64,000 nt of DNA from Paratractidigestivibacter sp. (GTDB taxonomy: Bacteria > Bacillota_I > Bacilli_A > Erysipelotrichales > Erysipelotrichaceae). The stretch lies in assembly GCA_963607765.1 (NCBI GenBank), contig CAVDDT010000034.1, positions 440 to 64,439 of the forward strand, given 5' to 3'. The translations under genes were made by a program, and so were the position numbers. The notes under the pieces were generated by a model. The model did not search any database. It had not been told where the DNA came from and saw only the letters and a program-made list of their open reading frames with translations. This document shows, one piece after another, positions 15,022 to 24,717 of this stretch (within the stretch, counting starts at the first letter, position 1; every line of letters starts with the position of its first letter).

Positions 15022-15035
15022 CGCTATAATAAATT

Positions 15036-15141
15036 TGTTTTCAGGGCAGGGTTAGATTCCCGATCGGTGGTATACCCCACGAGCGTAAGCTGAACTTGTG
15101 AGATTCAAGTGGCGACAGTATAGTCTGGATGAAAGGAGACT
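15036..15141 (+). promoter_or_regulatory. FMN riboswitch (RFN element)
   Basis: Conserved core ..ttcagggcagggt.agattcccgatcggtggtat.ccccacgagc...ggcgacagtatagtctggatgaaaggag. It lies directly upstream of ribU. A possible -10 tataat is at 15025-15030. Confidence 0.85.
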
Positions 15142-15150
15142 TTTTATTTT

Positions 15151-15741
15151 ATGAAAACTAATTCTAAAACTCACTTAATAGTGATGGTTGCGATTCTTGG
15201 GGCACTAGCAGGAGTATTAATGCTTATTGAGTTTCCCCTTGTGATTGCACCACCTTTTTATAAAGTGGATTTATCTGATGTAGCTGCACTTTTCGCAGGA
15301 TATGCACTTGGACCTGTTTGTGGCATTCTGGTATGTCTTGTCAAAATTCTTATTTCAATTATTCTAAATGGTACAACTACCGCTTTTGTAGGTGAATTTG
15401 CGGCATTTGTGATGGATGGCAGTTTTGTCTTAACGGCTTGTGTTATTTATAAGAAGCATCATAATAAAAAAGGTGCTATATATTCATTGCTATTTGGAAC
15501 TTTAATGTTAATGATTGTTGGCGGTGTTATGAACTATTTTGTGATGATTCCAGCATATGTTAAGTTTATGAACATTCCTCTTGATACTATTATCTCAATG
15601 GGTAACGCAATATTTGGCTCAGTAAATTCACTACTAACATTAGTATTATTCTGTACAGTTCCATTTAATTTAGTAAAAGGAATAATTATTAGTCTAATCA
15701 CTTATTTGTTGTATAAGAGGGTATCACCTTTAATTAAATAA
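15151..15741 (+). CDS. ribU: Riboflavin transporter, ECF S-component RibU
   Basis: 196-aa protein with about six TM segments, immediately downstream of an FMN riboswitch. Confidence 0.85.
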   Translation: MKTNSKTHLIVMVAILGALAGVLMLIEFPLVIAPPFYKVDLSDVAALFAGYALGPVCGILVCLVKILISIILNGTTTAFVGEFAAFVMDGSFVLTACVIYKKHHNKKGAIYSLLFGTLMLMIVGGVMNYFVMIPAYVKFMNIPLDTIISMGNAIFGSVNSLLTLVLFCTVPFNLVKGIIISLITYLLYKRVSPLIK

Positions 15742-16698: not shown

Positions 16699-17667
16699 AT
16701 GAGAAGAAGACCTGGATTTGATTTTGGCGGAATATTTTTCCTATTCATTTTAATAGGAAGTTTTGGCGGCATTTTAGTTTCTGGATTACTATCTTTACTT
16801 GCGATAGTTGTTCCGGTTGGAATTATTGGCTATGCCATTTATAAATTGGTTGGAAACAAGAATACTAGCAGTGGCAACAGTTCGGTAAATGTGAATAAGA
16901 ATTATGGTGATTCGATAAGAAAGAATGTGAATAACACTTATGTTAGTAATATGAGTGTTCCTGAACTAAATAAAATCGATAAGAAACTTACATCTTATTT
17001 TAAGAATAGTGTTTCTTTGCCTGTAATTGATACTGTTTCTTTAACTACTCAATCAGGAAAGTTTACAACTGTTGATCAACTTTATTTAACTTATAAAGAT
17101 GAGAAGATATGCAAACTTGCGGAATTTAAACAAAAATTTCCTGATGTTTATAAGAAGATTATGGAATTGTTATTGGTGTTCTCTTCTAAGAGCGACGATG
17201 TCTTAAAGGCTAATGTTGAAACTAACGAAATTAAACAAGAGGATAAGCTTTCTGATGCCGACAAGTATATCAATAAGATTGATGAATTAAATAGAGCCAT
17301 TCCTCAAGAAGAGATCACAAATGGCTTGTATCAAACTTGTGATTTGTTAAAGAAGATTGATGTTTTAAGCGAGACACATAGCGATAATAATAAGATTTCT
17401 AAGCTATATGATTATTATTTGCCTATTTTAACCGGTGCTCTTGAAAAGTATAAGAAGCTTCAGGATGCGCCTGTTCATGGCGATGAATTTAAAGAGTGTG
17501 AGGCTTCTTTGATTAAGACGATTGTGCTTATTAACGAGGCTTTAAAGACTATTTGTTCAAGCATGCAAGAAGATGATTATATGAATATTAATGCCGATAT
17601 TAATACTTTGCAAAGCTTGCTTAAAAAGGATGGATATGGTGAGGATCCTTTTGGAGATAAGAAATAA
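16699..17667 (+). CDS. Membrane protein with XpaC-like (5-bromo-4-chloroindolyl phosphate hydrolysis protein family) C-terminal domain
   Basis: Two N-terminal TM helices (FFLFILIGSFGGILVSGLLSLLAIVVPVGIIGYAIY). The C-terminal ..YDYYLPILTGALEKYKKLQ...INADINTLQSLLKKDG resembles the XpaC family. Confidence 0.6.
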   Translation: MRRRPGFDFGGIFFLFILIGSFGGILVSGLLSLLAIVVPVGIIGYAIYKLVGNKNTSSGNSSVNVNKNYGDSIRKNVNNTYVSNMSVPELNKIDKKLTSYFKNSVSLPVIDTVSLTTQSGKFTTVDQLYLTYKDEKICKLAEFKQKFPDVYKKIMELLLVFSSKSDDVLKANVETNEIKQEDKLSDADKYINKIDELNRAIPQEEITNGLYQTCDLLKKIDVLSETHSDNNKISKLYDYYLPILTGALEKYKKLQDAPVHGDEFKECEASLIKTIVLINEALKTICSSMQEDDYMNINADINTLQSLLKKDGYGEDPFGDKK

Positions 17668-18242
17668 TGGCTGATCAAGATATTTATAAATTAGTTGAAC
17701 AATTAAATAAGAATAAAATTTCGGATAACACAAAGATTGATGAAATCTATAATTTGCTTGATTCTTTAAAAGATGATGAGGGCAATAAAAGCGAGATTAA
17801 ATTAACAACTGGTGAAGATAAGGCAGAATCTAGTGAGGATAAAAAGAGAACTACTACTTTAAGAGATTTAAAGGGTTCGGTTTTGCCTATTAAAAAACCT
17901 TCTTTTCCAAGTGAAATAAGAGCTTTTGAAAATAGGAGTGATTGTTTCTTTAATATTCTTAGTGAGGTCGATTATGGAAGCAAGAATAACGAGGATTATG
18001 TAAAGGGGCATAAGACTGCGCTTGAAAAATACTATACTGTTGTTAGAAATAATAATAAAGATTTATATGTTGTTGAAGGACAAGTTAATGATGAACTTGC
18101 TTCTTTTGTGACTAACAAGCTTAGCAATAACTACAACAAGGGCTACTATGATGGACTTGAGTTTGTGTTAAACGCTTTATATAAGTCTAAGGATTTGATT
18201 AGCAAGAAGATATATCAGGAATTATTGAAAGAGTTGGGATAA
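17667..18242 (+). CDS. Hypothetical protein (191 aa)
   Basis: The start overlaps the upstream stop (taATG) and the stop overlaps the downstream start in the same way. No motif recognised. Confidence 0.5.
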   Translation: MADQDIYKLVEQLNKNKISDNTKIDEIYNLLDSLKDDEGNKSEIKLTTGEDKAESSEDKKRTTTLRDLKGSVLPIKKPSFPSEIRAFENRSDCFFNILSEVDYGSKNNEDYVKGHKTALEKYYTVVRNNNKDLYVVEGQVNDELASFVTNKLSNNYNKGYYDGLEFVLNALYKSKDLISKKIYQELLKELG

Positions 18243-20215
18243 TGGATAAGAGTGAAAGAGAAAAGCTTATTGATGAGGTTTTAAATAAGAGAAGAACTTA
18301 TTCTATGGATGAGTCCTTGAAGATTATTAATGATACCGAGAAGGAACTTAATCGTTTGCTTAGTGATAATAAGAAGGGCATTGATGATTTGGTTAAGGAA
18401 AACAATGATTCTAATTATTTGAGTAATTTAAAGAGCCAAATGGAAAAAGACTTTGATACTAAGATTGAGACTCCTGAAACAGTAGTAGTTGGAAAAGGTT
18501 CGAAAGAGATTTTTGATAAGATTAACGAAGAATTAAAGAAGACTATTATTGGACAAGATGATGCTTGCGATAAGATTACTATGGCTTTTAGAAGGCCTTA
18601 TGTTGTTGGTTCTAATCCTTCTTTAATTAGAAATTCTATTATCGTATATGGTAATAATGGAACTGGCAGACATTTGCTTGTTAATACGATGGGCAAGCTT
18701 CTTTATGAAAATGGTTTAACTATTTCCAGTGAAGTAGCTATTCTTGATATGAAGAGATATCAATCGAGCAGTCAGGAAATTCTTTTCTTACAAGATTTAT
18801 ATGTAGCTTTAAGTGGTAGAAATCCAATTATTTTAATTGAGAACTTTAAAGAAAGTTCTTCTATTTATACAAGAATGCTTAATGAATTAGTTCTTGAGGG
18901 AAGATGTTTACTAAACCAAAGATATACTTTCGTGAATAATCAGCTTCAAGAGGCTACTAGTAAATTAAGTAAGGATGTGATTGATCATCTTGATGGCAAT
19001 AATAAAACTTTAGTGTTTGTTTCTGAAGATAGTCCAAGCAAGATAATGGATATTTTTGGCAAGGCTTTTATCGAAAAGATTGAGGATAAGGTTGAGACGG
19101 TTAAATTATCTGATGATGCACTTGATAGAATTATTGATAATCTATTAAAGGATTTAGAAACTAAAAGCGAGACTCAATTTGAGATGGATGTAGTGATTGA
19201 TGATAGCTTGAAAACTTATTTGAAAGAGAATTATGAGCCTAATGATGGAATTGATTCACTTACGCCAATTATTGATAAGATATATAACAGCTTAGTTAAT
19301 ATCGCTTTAAAGAATGATAATGTTGATACTTTAAAGCTTATGTATAAGGATTCTATTAAAGCTGTTTTCAATGAAAACGAAGTAGAGCTTGATATCGATG
19401 ATGATAGTTCTAAGGAAAGAGAAGAGATTCAAAAAGAATTAGATGAGATAGTTGGTCTTAAAAATGTTAAGGATTATCTTTTGTCTTTAGAGAATCATAT
19501 TAAGATTACTCAAATTAGAAAACAAAAGGGTTTAAAGACTTCTGAAGTTAGTAAACATATGATTTTTACTGGCAATCCTGGTACTGGTAAGACAACCATT
19601 GCCCGTATTGTTTCACGTATGATGAAGGCTTGTGGCATCCTTAAACAAGGACAGCTTGTTGAGGTTACTCGTGCTGACTTAGTTGGCAAATATGTTGGAC
19701 ACACTGCTCCTTTGACAATGGATATTATAAATAGTGCACTAGGCGGTGTGTTGTTTATTGATGAAGCATATTCATTATATAGAGGAAAAGATGATTCATT
19801 TGGTCTTGAGGCTATCGATACTTTAGTAAAGGGCATGGAAGATCATCGTGATGATTTAATTGTTATTTTGGCTGGTTATTCTAAGGAAATGGAAGAGTTT
19901 TTAACGGCTAATAGTGGGTTGAAGTCTAGATTTGCGAATATTATTCATTTCGATGATTATACTGGCGAGGAGATGATGCTTATTTCAAAGAGCATTGCTA
20001 AGGGCAAGGGCTATGCTATTGCGGATGAGGCAATTAAGCCTTTAACTGATTACTATACAATTATTCAGGGCAAAGATGATCCAAATAGTGGTAATGGTAG
20101 ACTTGCTAGAAATAAGGTTGAAGAGGCTATTTTAAAACAATCAAAGCGTTTGCTTGATAATCCTAATGATGATATTAGTGAATTAAAACTAGAGGATTTT
20201 GATTTAGGAGAATAA
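18242..20215 (+). CDS. Tandem AAA+ ATPase: degenerate Clp-D2-like module plus SpoVK/CbbX-like active module
   Basis: Module 1 has IIGQDDACDKITMAFRRP, Walker-A-like GNNGTGRH (18650-18673) and Walker-B position ILIEN. Module 2 has VGLKNVKDYL, Walker A GNPGTGKTT (19571-), Walker B VLFIDEAY and ..ILAGY...SRF. Confidence 0.8.
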   Translation: MDKSEREKLIDEVLNKRRTYSMDESLKIINDTEKELNRLLSDNKKGIDDLVKENNDSNYLSNLKSQMEKDFDTKIETPETVVVGKGSKEIFDKINEELKKTIIGQDDACDKITMAFRRPYVVGSNPSLIRNSIIVYGNNGTGRHLLVNTMGKLLYENGLTISSEVAILDMKRYQSSSQEILFLQDLYVALSGRNPIILIENFKESSSIYTRMLNELVLEGRCLLNQRYTFVNNQLQEATSKLSKDVIDHLDGNNKTLVFVSEDSPSKIMDIFGKAFIEKIEDKVETVKLSDDALDRIIDNLLKDLETKSETQFEMDVVIDDSLKTYLKENYEPNDGIDSLTPIIDKIYNSLVNIALKNDNVDTLKLMYKDSIKAVFNENEVELDIDDDSSKEREEIQKELDEIVGLKNVKDYLLSLENHIKITQIRKQKGLKTSEVSKHMIFTGNPGTGKTTIARIVSRMMKACGILKQGQLVEVTRADLVGKYVGHTAPLTMDIINSALGGVLFIDEAYSLYRGKDDSFGLEAIDTLVKGMEDHRDDLIVILAGYSKEMEEFLTANSGLKSRFANIIHFDDYTGEEMMLISKSIAKGKGYAIADEAIKPLTDYYTIIQGKDDPNSGNGRLARNKVEEAILKQSKRLLDNPNDDISELKLEDFDLGE

Positions 20216-20713
20216 ATGCGTTTAATTAAGCTTTGGGATAGTGATTTAAATAAGGCGTATCAGTTGCATCAAGAGATTGGCTTAGATGAAAATGGGTTTT
20301 CAAATAGCGCCAATGGAATTGATTTAAAAGCATTTAGGGAATATGTCTATGATAAAAAGTATAGAGAAACAGGTGAGAGACTGCCTAATGGTTTTGTGCC
20401 TGATACAACATATGTTTTAGAGAATGATGATGGGGAATATGTTGGTGTTTTTAATTTACGTCATTATTTAAATAAGTTTTTAGAAAATGGTCCTGGGCAT
20501 ATTGGTTATGCGATTTCAAATAAGTATAGAAAAATGGGCTATGGCACCAAGGGCTTAGCTCTTACTTTAATTGAGGCTAAAAAATTAGGCATTGATGTGG
20601 CTTATATGAGCTGTTACAAAGATAATATTGGCAGTTTAAAGGTTCAACTTAATAATGGTGCTTATATTGATAGAGAAGATGATTTTTCTTATTATACTAA
20701 GGTTAAGCTATAA
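20216..20713 (+). CDS. GNAT-family N-acetyltransferase
   Basis: 165 aa, with the acetyl-CoA-binding segment ..GHIGYAISNKYRKMGYGTKGL.. Confidence 0.75.
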   Translation: MRLIKLWDSDLNKAYQLHQEIGLDENGFSNSANGIDLKAFREYVYDKKYRETGERLPNGFVPDTTYVLENDDGEYVGVFNLRHYLNKFLENGPGHIGYAISNKYRKMGYGTKGLALTLIEAKKLGIDVAYMSCYKDNIGSLKVQLNNGAYIDREDDFSYYTKVKL

Positions 20714-20731
20714 TACTAAAGGGAGTTGTTG

Positions 20732-22615
20732 ATGGGGATTAAGGATACTGGCAAATCTATTTTAAAGTTGTTTGATAAAGAAGATGAAGTTTTTGCGGAA
20801 AATGAAACACAGGCTAATAAGCTTGTTGCTTCCTCAATGCTCCTTTTGTGCATCATTTTAATTGTATGCATAATTCTTAATAATTTAGGCATTTTTCAAA
20901 ACGATATAGATTCTTATAATACTGTTATTTCTCATAGTATTATTGAGCTTTTTATTCCGTTTATATTATGTTGTTTCTTTAAAGGACAAAAGAAATGGTT
21001 GAAGTATTTCCTATTGCTTGAGATGACGGTTGTTTTCGCAAGAATTGATTGTTCACTTGGTTATAATGTTACTTTGATAATGGCTATTCCGGTTGTTCTT
21101 TCATGTAGATATTTTTCAAGTAAGTTCACAATAGTTATTGCGGTAGTTACTGCTTTATTGTTTGGACTATCTAGTTTTGCGAATGCATACTGGGACATGG
21201 GTGTCTTTGATTTAAATTTTTATAGCTTACCTGCTGGCACAGTTTTAGATAGCAGCGTTAGTGTTATTGAGGCAATTAAAAAGATAGGCATTGATGTTCC
21301 TACTAGGGTCTATCAAATGATGGTTTTAAACTATGGGTCTAAATTGTTTGTTTTCTTTATCATTACTGTAATTTGTGTGAGAATTGCTCAAACTGGCCAT
21401 GACATGGTTTTAAAACAAAGATATGTCACTAAAAAATCAATGCGTATTGAATCTGAGCTTAATTTAGCTACTAATATTCAAGCTCACATGCTTCCTAATA
21501 TTTTTCCTGCTTTTCCAGACGACAATGAATTCGACTTATATGCAAGCATGAAACCTGCTAAGGAAGTCGGCGGCGATTTCTATGATTTTGATAAACTTGA
21601 TGATACTCATTTAGCCTTAGTTATTGCGGACGTTTCGGGAAAAGGTATTCCAGCAGCGTTGTTTATGGTTATTGCCAAGACAATAATTAAAAACGAATTG
21701 CACATGGGCTATTCGCTTGAACAAGTTCTTTCTAAGGTTAATCATATGCTTTGTGAAGGCAATACCGATGGCATGTTTGTTACTGCTTGGGTTGGTGTTT
21801 TTGATGTTGAAACGGGTATTTTAGAATATGTTAGTGCTGGACATAATCCTCCATGTGTTCTCCAAGATGGGAATTATCATTTATTAAAGAGCAAGCCTGG
21901 ATTTGTTTTGGCGGGCTTAGATGGCGTTATGTATCATAGGCAATCAATCACATTAAGCCCAGGTGATAAAATATTCTTGTATACTGATGGTGTTACTGAG
22001 GCTATTGATAAAGATGAAAACATGTATGGTGATCAGCGCTTGCTTGAATATATGAATGCCCACAAGGACTATGGTCCTAAAGAAATGATTAATGGTGTTA
22101 AAGGTGATTTAAGCAATTTTGCGCTTGGTACCGAGCAGTTTGATGATGTTACGATGTTGATGATGGAATATAAAAAGAAAAAGGAAGTGGTTCATATGAA
22201 AGAGAAAGAGTTTAATCTTCCAGAGAATACGGTTGATGATGTTTTGAAATATATTGAGACAGAATTAAACGCTGTTAATTGTCCGATTAAGGCTCTTCAA
22301 CAAATTCTTATTTGCACAGAAGAAATTTTTGTGAATATTGCTAGTTATGCTTATGCAAATAAAAATGGTAAGGTTTTATTGGCTACTTCTATTGATGAAA
22401 ATAAGGCAGTTATTCAATTTAAAGATTCCGGTGTTCCATTTAATCCTCTCGAGATGAAGGATCCTGATGTTACTTTATCCGCTAAGGAAAGAGATGTTGG
22501 CGGTCTTGGAATTTATATAGTTAAGAAGGTAATGGATGAGGTTAATTATACTTATCAAAATGGATGTAACATTCTAACTATTGGGAAGGAATATAAAGAT
22601 GGATGTGTTAGATAA
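20732..22615 (+). CDS. Polytopic membrane PP2C (SpoIIE/RsbU-type) phosphatase fused to an RsbW/SpoIIAB-type HATPase kinase domain
   Basis: The TM region spans about the first 225 aa. PP2C motifs are GGDFYDF, VIADVSGKGIPAA, TDGVTEA and FDDVTMLMM (about 21443-22174). The HATPase has N-box EEIFVNIASYA, DSGVPFNP and GGLGIYIVKK (about 22208-22615). ATG at 20732 follows SD aaagggag; the ORF track starts at TTG 20726. Confidence 0.85.
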   Translation: MGIKDTGKSILKLFDKEDEVFAENETQANKLVASSMLLLCIILIVCIILNNLGIFQNDIDSYNTVISHSIIELFIPFILCCFFKGQKKWLKYFLLLEMTVVFARIDCSLGYNVTLIMAIPVVLSCRYFSSKFTIVIAVVTALLFGLSSFANAYWDMGVFDLNFYSLPAGTVLDSSVSVIEAIKKIGIDVPTRVYQMMVLNYGSKLFVFFIITVICVRIAQTGHDMVLKQRYVTKKSMRIESELNLATNIQAHMLPNIFPAFPDDNEFDLYASMKPAKEVGGDFYDFDKLDDTHLALVIADVSGKGIPAALFMVIAKTIIKNELHMGYSLEQVLSKVNHMLCEGNTDGMFVTAWVGVFDVETGILEYVSAGHNPPCVLQDGNYHLLKSKPGFVLAGLDGVMYHRQSITLSPGDKIFLYTDGVTEAIDKDENMYGDQRLLEYMNAHKDYGPKEMINGVKGDLSNFALGTEQFDDVTMLMMEYKKKKEVVHMKEKEFNLPENTVDDVLKYIETELNAVNCPIKALQQILICTEEIFVNIASYAYANKNGKVLLATSIDENKAVIQFKDSGVPFNPLEMKDPDVTLSAKERDVGGLGIYIVKKVMDEVNYTYQNGCNILTIGKEYKDGCVR

Positions 22616-23174
22616 GGCTATTGAGTTTGCCACAAAAGCTCACTCTGGCCAAGTTCGTAAGCTTGCCAATACACCATATATCTTGCATCCAATGGAGGTT
22701 GCTGCTATCATTTCTACTCTTACGAGTGATAAGGAAACAATGGCTGCTGGTCTTCTACATGATACGGTTGAGGATTGTAATATTGATCCATTAACTATTT
22801 ATAAGGAATTTGGCAAAAGAGTATATGGCCTAGTATTAAGTGAGACTGAAGATAAGCTAAGTGATAGGCCTGCTAGTGAGACTTGGATGGAGCGCAAGGA
22901 AGAATCTCTTTTGATGCTTGAAAATACTAAGGATGAACATGTACGTATCTTGTGGCTTTCAGATAAGTTATCTAACATGCGTTCATTCTATCGTGAGTAT
23001 CTTAAACATGGTGATGACATTTGGAATAGTCTTAATCAAAAAGATCCTTCTAAACAAGAATGGTATTATCGCTCAATCGCGAAAAGTTTAGTTAGTTTAA
23101 AAGATAGTGCAGCATATATAGAGTATGTTGAACTTGTTGATAAAGTATTTGGAAAGGAAAACAAACATGGATAG
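22599..23174 (+). CDS. HD-domain protein of the RelA/SpoT hydrolase-only type ((p)ppGpp-hydrolase-like)
   Basis: ..AIEFATKAHSGQVRK...PYILHPMEVA...AAGLLHDTVEDC.. ATG at 22599 follows ggaagga. It overlaps the upstream gene by 17 nt. Confidence 0.8.
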   Translation: MDVLDKAIEFATKAHSGQVRKLANTPYILHPMEVAAIISTLTSDKETMAAGLLHDTVEDCNIDPLTIYKEFGKRVYGLVLSETEDKLSDRPASETWMERKEESLLMLENTKDEHVRILWLSDKLSNMRSFYREYLKHGDDIWNSLNQKDPSKQEWYYRSIAKSLVSLKDSAAYIEYVELVDKVFGKENKHG

Positions 23175-24333
23175 TGTTAATGAGAATGGCGTACTTACTG
23201 TTTATTTAGAGGGACGTATCACGGCTGATAATTCTGCTGATGTTGGAAAAGAGATTGAGGAAATTCTTGAAAAAGAGCCTCACAATGAGCTTGTTTTCAA
23301 TTGTGGCAAGCTAGAATATATTGCTAGTGCCGGACTTCGTGTAGTTCTTCGTACCAAGAAAAAAGAACCAGCTTTAAAGATGGTTGATGTTAAAAGTGAA
23401 GTATATGACATCTTTGAAATGACTGGTTTTACAGAAATGATGGATATTGAAAAGGCATATCGCGAAATTTCTGTCGATGGTTGCGAAGTAATTGGACAGG
23501 GTTCAAATGGCAAGGTATATCGAATTGATCCAGATACTATTGTCAAAGTGTTTTTTAATTCAGATGCCTTAGCTGATATTCATAGAGAAAGAGAGTTAGC
23601 TAGAACAGCGTTTGTATTGGGTATTCCCACTGCTATTTCATATGATGTAGTTAAGGTTGGCGACACTTATGGTTCAGTATTTGAACTTCTTAATGCGAAT
23701 AGTTATATCAAAGAGATTATTAAAGATCCTAGTAGTATTGATAAATATATAAAGCTTTCAGTGGATTTGTTGAAGAAGATTCATGCGACTAAGGTAAAGC
23801 CTGGCGAATTGCCTGATATTAAGCTAACTGTCTTGGGATGGGTTGATTATTTAAAGGATTATCTTCCAGAGGATAAATACAACAAGCTTAAGAAGATGGT
23901 TGAGGATGTTCCTGATACAAATACAATGATTCATGGTGATTATCATATGAAGAATTTGATGATTCAAGATGGTGAAACACTTCTAATTGATATGGATACA
24001 CTTGCACAAGGCCATCCAATATTTGAACTTGGCAGTGTATTTAATGCTTATGTTGGATTCTCAGAACTTGATCATAATAACTGCTTGGGTTTCTTGGGTA
24101 TCCCATATGAACAATGTGAATATATTTGGAATAAAACACTTCCTTTATATCTTGATACTACTGATGATAAGAGAATTAAGGAAGTTGAGAATAAGGCTAG
24201 AATAGTAGGCTATACTCGTTTAATGAGACGTACTATTAAACGATTGGGTTTTGAAAAAGCTGGCGATAGTATAGAGTTTTATAAAGAAAACTTAATGAAA
24301 TTAATTGATGAAGTTGACACACTTGTGTTCTAG
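23167..24333 (+). CDS. STAS (anti-sigma-antagonist-like) domain fused to an APH/choline-kinase-fold kinase domain
   Basis: The STAS part is ..LEYIASAGLRVVL.. (Ser codon at 23326-23328). The kinase part has IGQGSNGKVYR, VKVF, HGDYHMKNLM and LIDMD. ATG at 23167 follows aaaggaaa and overlaps the HD gene by 8 nt. Confidence 0.8.
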   Translation: MDSVNENGVLTVYLEGRITADNSADVGKEIEEILEKEPHNELVFNCGKLEYIASAGLRVVLRTKKKEPALKMVDVKSEVYDIFEMTGFTEMMDIEKAYREISVDGCEVIGQGSNGKVYRIDPDTIVKVFFNSDALADIHRERELARTAFVLGIPTAISYDVVKVGDTYGSVFELLNANSYIKEIIKDPSSIDKYIKLSVDLLKKIHATKVKPGELPDIKLTVLGWVDYLKDYLPEDKYNKLKKMVEDVPDTNTMIHGDYHMKNLMIQDGETLLIDMDTLAQGHPIFELGSVFNAYVGFSELDHNNCLGFLGIPYEQCEYIWNKTLPLYLDTTDDKRIKEVENKARIVGYTRLMRRTIKRLGFEKAGDSIEFYKENLMKLIDEVDTLVF

Positions 24334-24345
24334 AAAGAGGATAAT

Positions 24346-24642
24346 ATGACAATTGATAATGTTAAAGATGGAGAAACACTTACTTTAAAACTTACTGGTA
24401 GACTTGATACCACTACTGCTCCTGAGCTTGAGGCTGCAGTAAATAGAGAGGTTGATGGAATCAAGAATGTAGTGCTAGATATGGAAAAACTTGAATATGT
24501 TTCTAGTGCTGGTTTGCGTGTATTGCTTTCTATTCAAAAGAAGATGGCTGACAATGGAACATTTGTCTTAAAGAATGTTTGTGATGAAATCAAAGAGGTA
24601 CTAGATATCACTGGTTTCTCTTCATTCCTTACTATTGAGTAA
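24346..24642 (+). CDS. Single-domain STAS protein (anti-sigma factor antagonist family)
   Basis: 98 aa, with ..LEYVSSAGLRVLL.. carrying the conserved phosphorylatable Ser (24505-24507). SD agagga. Confidence 0.85.
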   Translation: MTIDNVKDGETLTLKLTGRLDTTTAPELEAAVNREVDGIKNVVLDMEKLEYVSSAGLRVLLSIQKKMADNGTFVLKNVCDEIKEVLDITGFSSFLTIE

Positions 24643-24686
24643 AGTTTATTAGAGGACTGGTCGAAAGACCATGGTCTACACTATTG

Positions 24687-24712
24687 GCGGGTAAGACACC
24701 CGCTTTTCTTTT
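24687..24712 (+). terminator. Rho-independent terminator closing the 16699-24642 block
   Basis: GCGGGT (24687-24692) / ACCCGC (24698-24703), followed by ttttctttt. Confidence 0.8.
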
Positions 24713-24717
24713 ATCTT

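Follow-up and report, generated by a model that had tools for sequence, protein, structure and literature searches.

A four-gene cassette around a STAS-kinase fusion

The gene under study lies at positions 23167-24333 of a 64,000-nucleotide stretch of Paratractidigestivibacter sp. DNA (contig CAVDDT010000034.1 of assembly GCA_963607765.1), and its product joins a STAS domain covalently to a kinase domain of the APH/choline kinase (ChoK) fold. The whole stretch is referred to below as the window, and positions are counted from its first letter. The gene, here called STAS-APH, is the third in a cassette of four, all on the forward strand, that ends in a terminator-like signal:

20726-22615 (+): membrane protein of 629 aa with PP2C and RsbW-type serine kinase domains (Pfam SpoIIE 7.1e-50, HATPase_c_2 1.9e-20)
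22581-23174 (+): HD_4 phosphohydrolase of the small alarmone hydrolase (SAH) type, 197 aa (Pfam HD_4 6.7e-21, 75.1 bits)
23167-24333 (+): STAS-APH fusion gene, 388 aa (open reading frame (ORF), Pfam STAS and APH)
24346-24642 (+): free-standing STAS protein, 98 aa (Pfam STAS 2.6e-17; TIGR00377 72.2 bits, above its cutoff)
24686-24713 (+): intrinsic-terminator-like hairpin (24686-24704; 7-bp stem with 5 GC pairs), then a T-run, TTTCTTTTAT

The first product begins with about 235 hydrophobic residues, in which some six transmembrane helices were judged by eye, and continues with a SpoIIE/PP2C domain (residues 292-482) and a HATPase_c_2 domain (residues 502-619), both by Pfam; its RsbW, SpoIIAB and SiaA matches in NCBIfam are weak. 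The longest ORF of the HD_4 gene starts at a TTG at 22581, so that its first 35 nt are shared with the end of the PP2C-RsbW gene. An alternative ATG at 22599 (MDVLDK...) would shorten that overlap to 17 nt, and the four genes are translationally close-packed whichever start applies. The ATG of STAS-APH at 23167 overlaps the HD_4 stop by 8 nt (ATGGATAG; HD_4 gene end at 23174), and the free STAS gene starts at 24346, 12 nt past the TAG of STAS-APH (24331-24333), preceded by AAGAGG; the 8-nt overlap and the 12-nt spacing were both already given in a first-pass annotation of this DNA made from the letters alone. An in-frame ATG at 23125 was rejected as the STAS-APH start because homologues align from residues 1-10 of the 23167 start. 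The free STAS has its own phospho-acceptor candidate, Ser54 (24505-24507), in YVSSAGLR. To judge from its sequence, the hairpin would close the cassette ahead of mnmE.

Reality and conservation of the fusion

The STAS-APH protein carries the following features, with conservation taken from alignments of 132-134 representatives that are 33-60% identical to the query:

23167-23460 (+): STAS domain, residues 1-98 (Pfam, TIGR00377, alignment with SpoIIAA structures, AlphaFold2)
23326-23328 (+): Ser54 (AGT), predicted phospho-acceptor, in YIASAGLR; aligns with the first Ser of SpoIIAA DSSGL
23470-24330 (+): kinase domain, residues 102-388, TIGR02172-like APH/ChoK fold with helical C-terminal lobe (Pfam, TIGR02172, Foldseek)
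23491-23523 (+): Gly-loop IGQGSNGKVYR, residues 109-119; G110 and G112 at least 90% conserved
23545-23547 (+): Lys127, ATP-anchoring Lys on strand beta3, in VKVF; 131/132
23587-23589 (+): Glu141, partner of Lys127, in helix 135-150 (AlphaFold2 secondary structure); 121/132
23932-23955 (+): catalytic loop HGDYHMKN (Brenner motif), residues 256-263, with Asp258 and Asn263; H256 131/132, D258 132/132, N263 132/132
23986-23997 (+): IDMD, residues 274-277, metal-binding motif
23989-23991 (+): Asp275, metal-binding Asp (DFG equivalent), in LIDMD; 132/132

The ORF runs without interruption from 23167 to 24333, and Pfam places both STAS (PF01740, residues 6-98, E 7.5e-12, 45.4 bits against a cutoff of 22.6) and APH (PF01636, residues 108-295, E 6e-12, 46.3 bits against a cutoff of 23.2) on it, which bears out the fusion as first annotated. 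The fused STAS domain scores 52.6 bits against TIGR00377, just under the cutoff of 53.45. It aligns with the SpoIIAA structures 1TH8, 1AUZ and 4HYL, SpoIIAA structures are matched by the family profile at 3e-15 to 1e-11, and the AlphaFold2 model shows the typical beta/alpha STAS pattern. The serine picked out earlier in YIASAGLR matches the SpoIIAA phospho-Ser position, which is Ala in the mutant chain 1TID, and it is invariant in 132/132 and 134/134 members. Gly152, Asp258, Asn263 and Asp275 are likewise invariant, and conservation is at least 90% for Lys127, Glu141, His256, Gly110, Gly112 and the STAS motif Y-x-S-S-x-G-L-R. The Gly-loop, the Lys of VKVF, HGDYHMKN and IDMD were all found where the first reading had put them, and all are conserved family-wide, well past anything that chance would give. 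The kinase domain had also been described as catalytically competent in appearance, and its catalytic residues are indeed intact and 90-100% conserved across the family; the possibility of a pseudokinase was rejected on these sequence grounds.

Homologues of the same architecture are abundant. A search of 5.8 billion proteins, in which 8000 candidates were scored, gave 7975 matches, and all 120 of the homologues listed are STAS+APH proteins of 387-399 aa. An exhaustive HMMER scan of 1.84 billion representatives clustered at 50% identity returned 690 at E<=1e-30, of which nearly all of the best 150 are about 390 aa long and match end to end; some of the roughly 690 clusters hold hundreds of member sequences. 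An assembly artefact, or a stop codon hidden near 23470-23490, was rejected given the continuous ORF and the thousands of homologues of about 390 aa with this architecture. The caution attached to the fusion at the outset, that such a stop might emerge, has thus lost its force: the fusion is found again, free of internal stops, in hundreds of divergent lineages.

Moreover, the junction between the domains is fixed, with exactly 21 residues between STAS Phe88 and Gly110 of the Gly-loop in 132/132 members. AlphaFold2, run with the family alignment, gave a pLDDT of 97.1 and a pTM of 0.89, with the last STAS strand (residues 93-96) ten residues ahead of the first kinase strand (residues 107-111). 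The model indicates that the two domains would form one confidently packed body rather than beads on a string, and both the invariant spacing and this confident single-body model fit allosteric gating. Taken together, we hold with high confidence that STAS-APH is a real, active fusion.

Databases name members of the family either "anti-sigma factor antagonist" or "TIGR02172 family". Rare longer architectures, one representative each, add to STAS-APH a PolyA_pol head (a CCA-adding-type nucleotidyltransferase; P0232), a Na+/H+ exchanger membrane domain (P0262) or a YezG-like immunity domain (P0137); these are candidate fusions from gene calls.

Partner-switching enzymes and free STAS proteins

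Gene neighbourhoods were compared in 102 loci, made up of 15 loci from reference genomes (including Bulleidia, Lachnospiraceae, Oscillospiraceae, Agathobacter and Erysipelotrichaceae), 80 metagenome loci and 7 exact look-ups, with a partner counted if it lay within 2.5 kb of STAS-APH. The survey of neighbours had been proposed with the first annotation, and it found the fusion widespread, with RsbW/PP2C enzymes, free STAS proteins and one hydrolase type recurring beside it. STAS-APH has a gene for an RsbW-type kinase and/or a PP2C phosphatase nearby in 64/102 loci, almost always in the same orientation. At least nine loci encode STAS-APH-RsbW as a single ORF, and fusions of HATPase_c_2, STAS and APH are represented by P0122, P0128 and P0148, with RsbW at either the N- or the C-terminus. 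This genomic context strongly supports the suggestion, made from the window alone, that a partner-switching kinase and phosphatase act on the fused STAS, and it is likely that Ser54 is the substrate of the neighbouring enzymes. A free STAS occurs in 49/102 loci, and all 57 of the free-STAS tblastn hits in related loci that cover the phospho-acceptor position have Ser there.

The closest characterised precedent for this kind of wiring is All4160 of Anabaena sp. PCC 7120 (PMC13555669), in which a STAS domain is joined to a glycosyltransferase and the switching is done by HenR, a SpoIIE-type phosphatase, and Alr3423, a kinase of the RsbW type. Phosphorylation of the All4160 STAS domain inhibits the fused enzyme, a form of regulation shown both genetically and in vitro (PMC13555669), and a review counts All4160 among the rare non-SulP multidomain STAS proteins (PMC8256260). 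The two systems share an N-terminal STAS on an enzyme, an RsbW-type Ser kinase and a PP2C/SpoIIE phosphatase, the absence of a sigma factor, and an enzyme as direct output. They differ in that the All4160 output is a bacterial sugar transferase in a cyanobacterium, its phosphatase bears a receiver domain and is not joined to the kinase, and its module has neither a hydrolase nor a free-STAS paralogue; furthermore, regulation is demonstrated for All4160 and proposed for STAS-APH. The earlier idea of a STAS-enzyme as the output of partner switching is therefore supported, though it is not without precedent, the STAS-glycosyltransferase having been published (PMC13555669). By analogy with All4160, we lean slightly towards phosphorylation as what gates the kinase here.

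Another means of control would be sequestration. Here STAS-APH would stand in for the sigma factor, and the RsbW-like domain would bind the fused STAS and so inactivate the kinase or tether it at the membrane, until dephosphorylated free STAS displaced it, with no need for phosphorylation of Ser54. The free STAS with its conserved Ser that accompanies the fusion in 49 loci would suit such a displacer, the RsbW domain in the window is part of a membrane protein, the cassette has no sigma factor gene, and RsbW is often joined covalently to STAS-APH, which shows the two acting as a complex. An invariant Ser54 in 132/132 fused STAS domains would, however, be unexpected if that residue were never phosphorylated, and in the only studied STAS-enzyme fusion it is phosphorylation of the fused STAS that is regulatory (PMC13555669). 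Sequestration is consequently judged unlikely as the sole mode of control, although it and the phospho-switch that we favour are not mutually exclusive.

Placement of the kinase domain

The first-pass annotation had proposed to place the kinase domain by profile and structure searches, and these succeeded in part: they gave an APH/ChoK fold of the TIGR02172 type, but no characterised clade, with matches spread at 12-18% identity. In Foldseek searches against the PDB, the best matches were APH(2'')-IVa/Ib, APH(3')-Ia, 5-methylthioribose (MTR) kinase, the capreomycin phosphotransferase Cph001 and FN3K, at E~1e-9, 12-18% identity and TM-scores of 0.55-0.61 normalised to the target. Protein kinases ranked far below small-molecule kinases in the structure searches. 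The C-terminal domain, as modelled, thus appears to belong to the small-molecule branch of the protein-kinase-like fold. Among curated models the best is TIGR02172, a paralogous family as yet uncharacterised (E 1.3e-33, model positions 2-196 of 226), with 116.8 bits against a cutoff of 228.2, and other family members and STAS-less paralogues reach 90-115 bits, likewise below the cutoff; as the best-matching model still falls short, the kinase domain is a sister to the TIGR02172 family and not a member. PDB searches by sequence, with the single sequence or the family profile, aligned the catalytic core only (hygromycin kinase 1e-6, choline kinases 1e-4). No substrate-defined clade, whether APH, ChoK, MTRK, FN3K, HSK2, NahK or others, stands out in the PDB sequence or Foldseek searches. 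Matches in a viral library, to ethanolamine kinase and to kinase-nucleotidyltransferase fusions, are uninformative for the clade, and the literature search turned up nothing about STAS-APH or TIGR02172 and no report linking SAH enzymes to partner switching; for HD-CE it brought up unrelated medical papers only. The kinase belongs to an orphan APH clade, and its substrate lies beyond assignment by homology.

Paralogues of the kinase without a STAS domain also exist. Two of them, at L098:489-1364 (+) and L101:2021-2905 (+), are 29-31% identical and TIGR02172-like, keep IPTAISY, HGDxHxxN and LIDM, and adjoin or lie near STAS-APH in two distant loci. Such an arrangement suggests a regulated and an unregulated isozyme, or a heteromer.

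It is also conceivable that the APH-like domain is a protein kinase for its own STAS, for the free STAS, for HD_4 or for some other protein, acting like a eukaryotic-type protein kinase as a substitute for RsbW or as a second tier to it. Some APH-family members do act on proteins, examples being those behind the weak NCBIfam matches of this kinase (YihE/SrkA-type PRK11768, CotS and Bud32); the STAS and kinase domains are rigidly coupled; and five of the 46 loci with ample flanks have no partners, where an autonomous switch would need its own kinase. On the other side, the best structural neighbours are all small-molecule kinases, with protein kinases far lower. The C-terminal lobe is of the helical APH/ChoK type, with no sign of an activation segment in the AlphaFold2 secondary-structure summary. 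RsbW-type kinases are present or fused in most loci, so that a second STAS kinase would be redundant, and STAS-less paralogues of the same kinase clade exist. We regard this alternative as improbable.

Phosphohydrolase partners

The HD neighbour was under-read in the first-pass annotation. The HD_4 protein of the window matches TIGR00691, the spoT_relA model, in its N-terminal hydrolase region (5.2e-25). Among solved structures, the small HD proteins 7QOE and 4YF1 (Lmo0812) come nearest to it, and Rel/SpoT hydrolase domains and MESH1 come next; relative to 7QOE and 4YF1 it keeps the motifs HP, LLHDxVED (HDxxED) and DKLxNxR. Of the 102 loci, 42 have an HD_4 homologue as a partner. When its ORF is the one immediately upstream, the two genes usually share 1-41 nt at the STAS-APH start, and in one representative (P0250, from locus L097) HD_4 is fused as HD_4-STAS-APH.

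Other loci have a different phosphohydrolase. A PHP-domain gene lies 3' of the kinase gene in 13/102 loci, none of which has HD_4, and one representative (P0131) is a STAS-APH-PHP fusion. This PHP partner is nearest to the models for 3',5'-nucleoside bisphosphate phosphatase and RNase RNM (RNase AM), and to PDB 3E0F and 2YB1. A third type, HD-CE, occurs in 2/102 loci, a deep-branching pair, and is represented by the fusion HD-CE-STAS-APH (P0161). The three types are mutually exclusive, with no locus among the 102 encoding two of them, and a phosphohydrolase of some type is present in over half. In a Pfam scan of 51 non-cassette neighbours only PHP recurs (5 members), the rest appearing once or twice. 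A rough neighbour-joining tree of kinase domains places the PHP-linked genes together in a single clade, where the C-terminal RsbW fusion is also found and which is nested within HD_4-linked diversity; non-orthologous displacement of one functional partner would be expected to leave such a pattern. Thus, a phosphohydrolase is a recurrent partner of the kinase and probably part of its mechanism.

PHP enzymes of the TrpH/Cv1693 type remove the 3'-phosphate from pNp. Both the SAH-type and the TrpH-like families act on the ribose of a nucleotide, cleaving off a phosphoryl group at position 2'/3'. That the hydrolase reverses the kinase and that the product is nucleotide-like is, at this point, a tentative proposal. 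In one distant locus, at L098:6778-9330 (+), a PAPS reductase and a CysN/APS-kinase fusion are encoded about 2.5 kb downstream of a STAS-APH and HD-CE pair; this is possibly a coincidence, but it is of note for the idea of pAp or another 3'-phosphonucleotide.

A more conventional reading would make STAS-APH a canonical anti-sigma-factor antagonist for a remote RsbW/sigma pair, with the APH domain an accessory or a resistance enzyme and the hydrolase unrelated. The source names do read "anti-sigma factor antagonist", the TIGR00377 score is just under the cutoff, and the closest solved folds are aminoglycoside and capreomycin phosphotransferases. Yet identity to the resistance APHs is just 12-18%, and the family is broad, chromosomal and located beside housekeeping genes. 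Neither the four genes of the cassette nor the genes next to them in the window include one for a sigma factor, though one may lie elsewhere in the genome, and no sigma-factor family is among the 25 listed of the 42 Pfam families in the 51 non-cassette operon neighbours. The local RsbW is membrane-tethered and fused to its own phosphatase. This reading also leaves the recurrent, mutually exclusive linkage and the fusions to HD_4, PHP and HD-CE unexplained, and we consider it very improbable.

Proposed mechanism

As a whole, we modestly favour a reading in which the membrane PP2C-RsbW protein sets the state of Ser54 and so gates a kinase that is paired with a hydrolase. In the first step, the upstream protein, with its roughly six transmembrane helices, would sense an envelope or membrane cue and alternate between two activities, that of its RsbW-type Ser-kinase domain and that of its PP2C domain. 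In the second, it would phosphorylate or dephosphorylate Ser54 of the fused STAS as well as Ser54 of the free STAS, as we infer because of the invariant Ser, the gene linkage and the gene fusions. In the third, the phospho-state of the fused STAS, 21 residues from the Gly-loop, would turn the kinase on or off, with phosphorylation perhaps inhibitory by analogy with All4160, and the free STAS would compete for the RsbW domain and so set a threshold. In the last, the kinase would phosphorylate a small-molecule hydroxyl and the coupled HD_4 (elsewhere PHP or HD-CE) would take the phosphate off again, such that a signal-gated kinase/phosphohydrolase pair would set how much of a phosphorylated metabolite is present. 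For the product, a nucleotide phosphorylated at the ribose 2' or 3' position would be the most economical guess.

Taken further, the cassette could be a signal-gated writer/eraser pair for an unrecognised phosphorylated nucleotide, which could serve as a messenger or, as a modification of a nucleotide or of an RNA 3' end, arrest growth; this remains speculative and is held with low confidence. In equally speculative detail, an APH-fold kinase would write the ribose 2'/3'-phosphate, an SAH, TrpH-like PHP or HD-CE enzyme would erase it, and PP2C/RsbW would time the writer.

Several observations weigh against the phospho-gated kinase/hydrolase pair. Most of the 102 loci show 50% identity or more to the query, and there is phylogenetic redundancy among them. 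In 14 of them, many on short contigs, there is no switch enzyme, hydrolase or free STAS. Among the 46 with ample flanks, 16 lack a hydrolase and five lack every partner, from which it follows that the partners are not obligatory in cis. Among four distant members (34-37% identity), HD-CE is present in one, a free STAS in one and a STAS-less paralogue in two; no RsbW or PP2C gene was seen in their short contigs, which leaves universal linkage to the switch enzymes unproven. The HD_4, PHP and HD-CE fusions are each known from one representative, with P0131 and P0250 on one contig each, and could be merged gene calls. The hydrolase linkage could equally reflect co-regulated, independent outputs, and we know of no APH-fold kinase that phosphorylates a nucleotide.

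Comparison with other known systems

The cassette has clear parallels with the Bacillus RsbV-RsbW-RsbU/P and SpoIIAA-SpoIIAB-SpoIIE systems, in which, too, a STAS fold with a DSSGL-type phospho-Ser occurs and the genes for a GHKL-type Ser kinase (HATPase_c_2) and a PP2C phosphatase lie together. Unlike these, the cassette has no sigma factor, its kinase and phosphatase are fused in a membrane protein, and a kinase of 290 aa is attached to one of its two STAS substrates.

With TIGR02172 and the APH family (PF01636), including APH(2''), APH(3'), MTR kinase, choline kinase and FN3K, the kinase domain shares the bilobal fold, the Gly-loop, the Lys-Glu pair, HxDxxxxN and a metal-binding Asp. It differs in its covalent joining to a STAS and in its 12-18% identity to the solved members. 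To our knowledge, no characterised APH-type member has a STAS domain or a dedicated SAH or PHP partner.

Single polypeptides in which an RsbW-like kinase and a PP2C domain act on a STAS protein, with an output other than a sigma factor, are also exemplified by Vibrio fischeri SypE/SypA and M. tuberculosis Rv1364c (see PMC10120452 and PMC4517449). SypE has a central receiver domain and is cytoplasmic, and SypA has no enzyme fusion, whereas the sensor of the cassette is a multi-pass membrane protein and its STAS carries an enzyme.

Finally, long RelA/SpoT homologue (RSH) enzymes and toxSAS-SAH pairs resemble the cassette in that an RSH-type HD hydrolase is paired with a phosphoryl-adding enzyme (in P0250, fused to it) with a regulatory domain between them (for SAH substrates, see PMC9765508). 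The order of the genes, with the hydrolase gene first and overlapping the kinase gene, also resembles an antitoxin-toxin order. Nevertheless, STAS-APH is an APH-fold kinase that would transfer a gamma-phosphate, not a pyrophosphokinase of nucleotidyltransferase fold, and a link to (p)ppGpp is without evidence.

Other features of the window

Directly upstream of the cassette, at 16699-20713 (+), is a run of closely abutting or overlapping genes. Their products are a 322-aa protein that matches Halogen_Hydrol weakly, one of 191 aa without a family, an AAA+ protein of 657 aa with an AAA_lid_6 domain, and a GNAT acetyltransferase. These genes may be co-transcribed with the cassette in the window, but their position beside it is not conserved in related genomes. 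The AAA+ and GNAT genes, along with mnmE, were rejected as parts of the system because they are not adjacent to the cassette in related genomes.

The 90-nt spacer between the free STAS gene and mnmE contains an Rfam match to DUF3800-XI RNA (RF02975) at 24653-24701 (+), with 42.3 bits against a gathering threshold of 37.8 (E 4.7e-06), which overlaps the terminator-like hairpin. It may be a two-hairpin terminator region fitting a short model. Further upstream, an FMN riboswitch at 15033-15144 (+; 95.5 bits) lies directly 5' of an ECF-transporter S-component gene at 15151-15741 (+), which presumably encodes a riboflavin transporter.

Significance

Partner switching is usually taught as a mechanism of sigma-factor release, and the direct wiring of a STAS domain to an enzyme has few examples, the first of which, the cyanobacterial glycosyltransferase, was worked out only in 2026. 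Partner-switching-like control with a direct enzyme output is therefore already known, and what would be new here is a kinase as that output. The STAS-APH family, with about 690 clusters (50% identity, E<=1e-30) in dominant gut and rumen Firmicutes, would extend the STAS-enzyme principle to a kinase. The fusion itself is unlikely to shock a specialist, and the pairing of kinase with phosphohydrolase is potentially the more novel feature.

Linkage to three unrelated phosphohydrolase families offers a concrete, testable handle on the orphan TIGR02172-like clade. Together with the size of the family in gut Firmicutes, the SAH and PHP linkage opens to direct testing the long-standing question of what orphan SAHs and orphan APH-like kinases do. 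The SAH-type and TrpH-like families among the three are best known for stripping phosphoryl groups off the ribose 3'(2') position of nucleotides, and the linkage in turn suggests a role for the bacterial "orphan" small alarmone hydrolases. If the product is a nucleotide, the cassette would represent a new second-messenger or growth-control circuit in the human microbiota. Were the writer/eraser reading true, gut Lachnospiraceae, Oscillospiraceae and Erysipelotrichaceae would widely carry a circuit that resembles an alarmone system but is built with no RSH synthetase.

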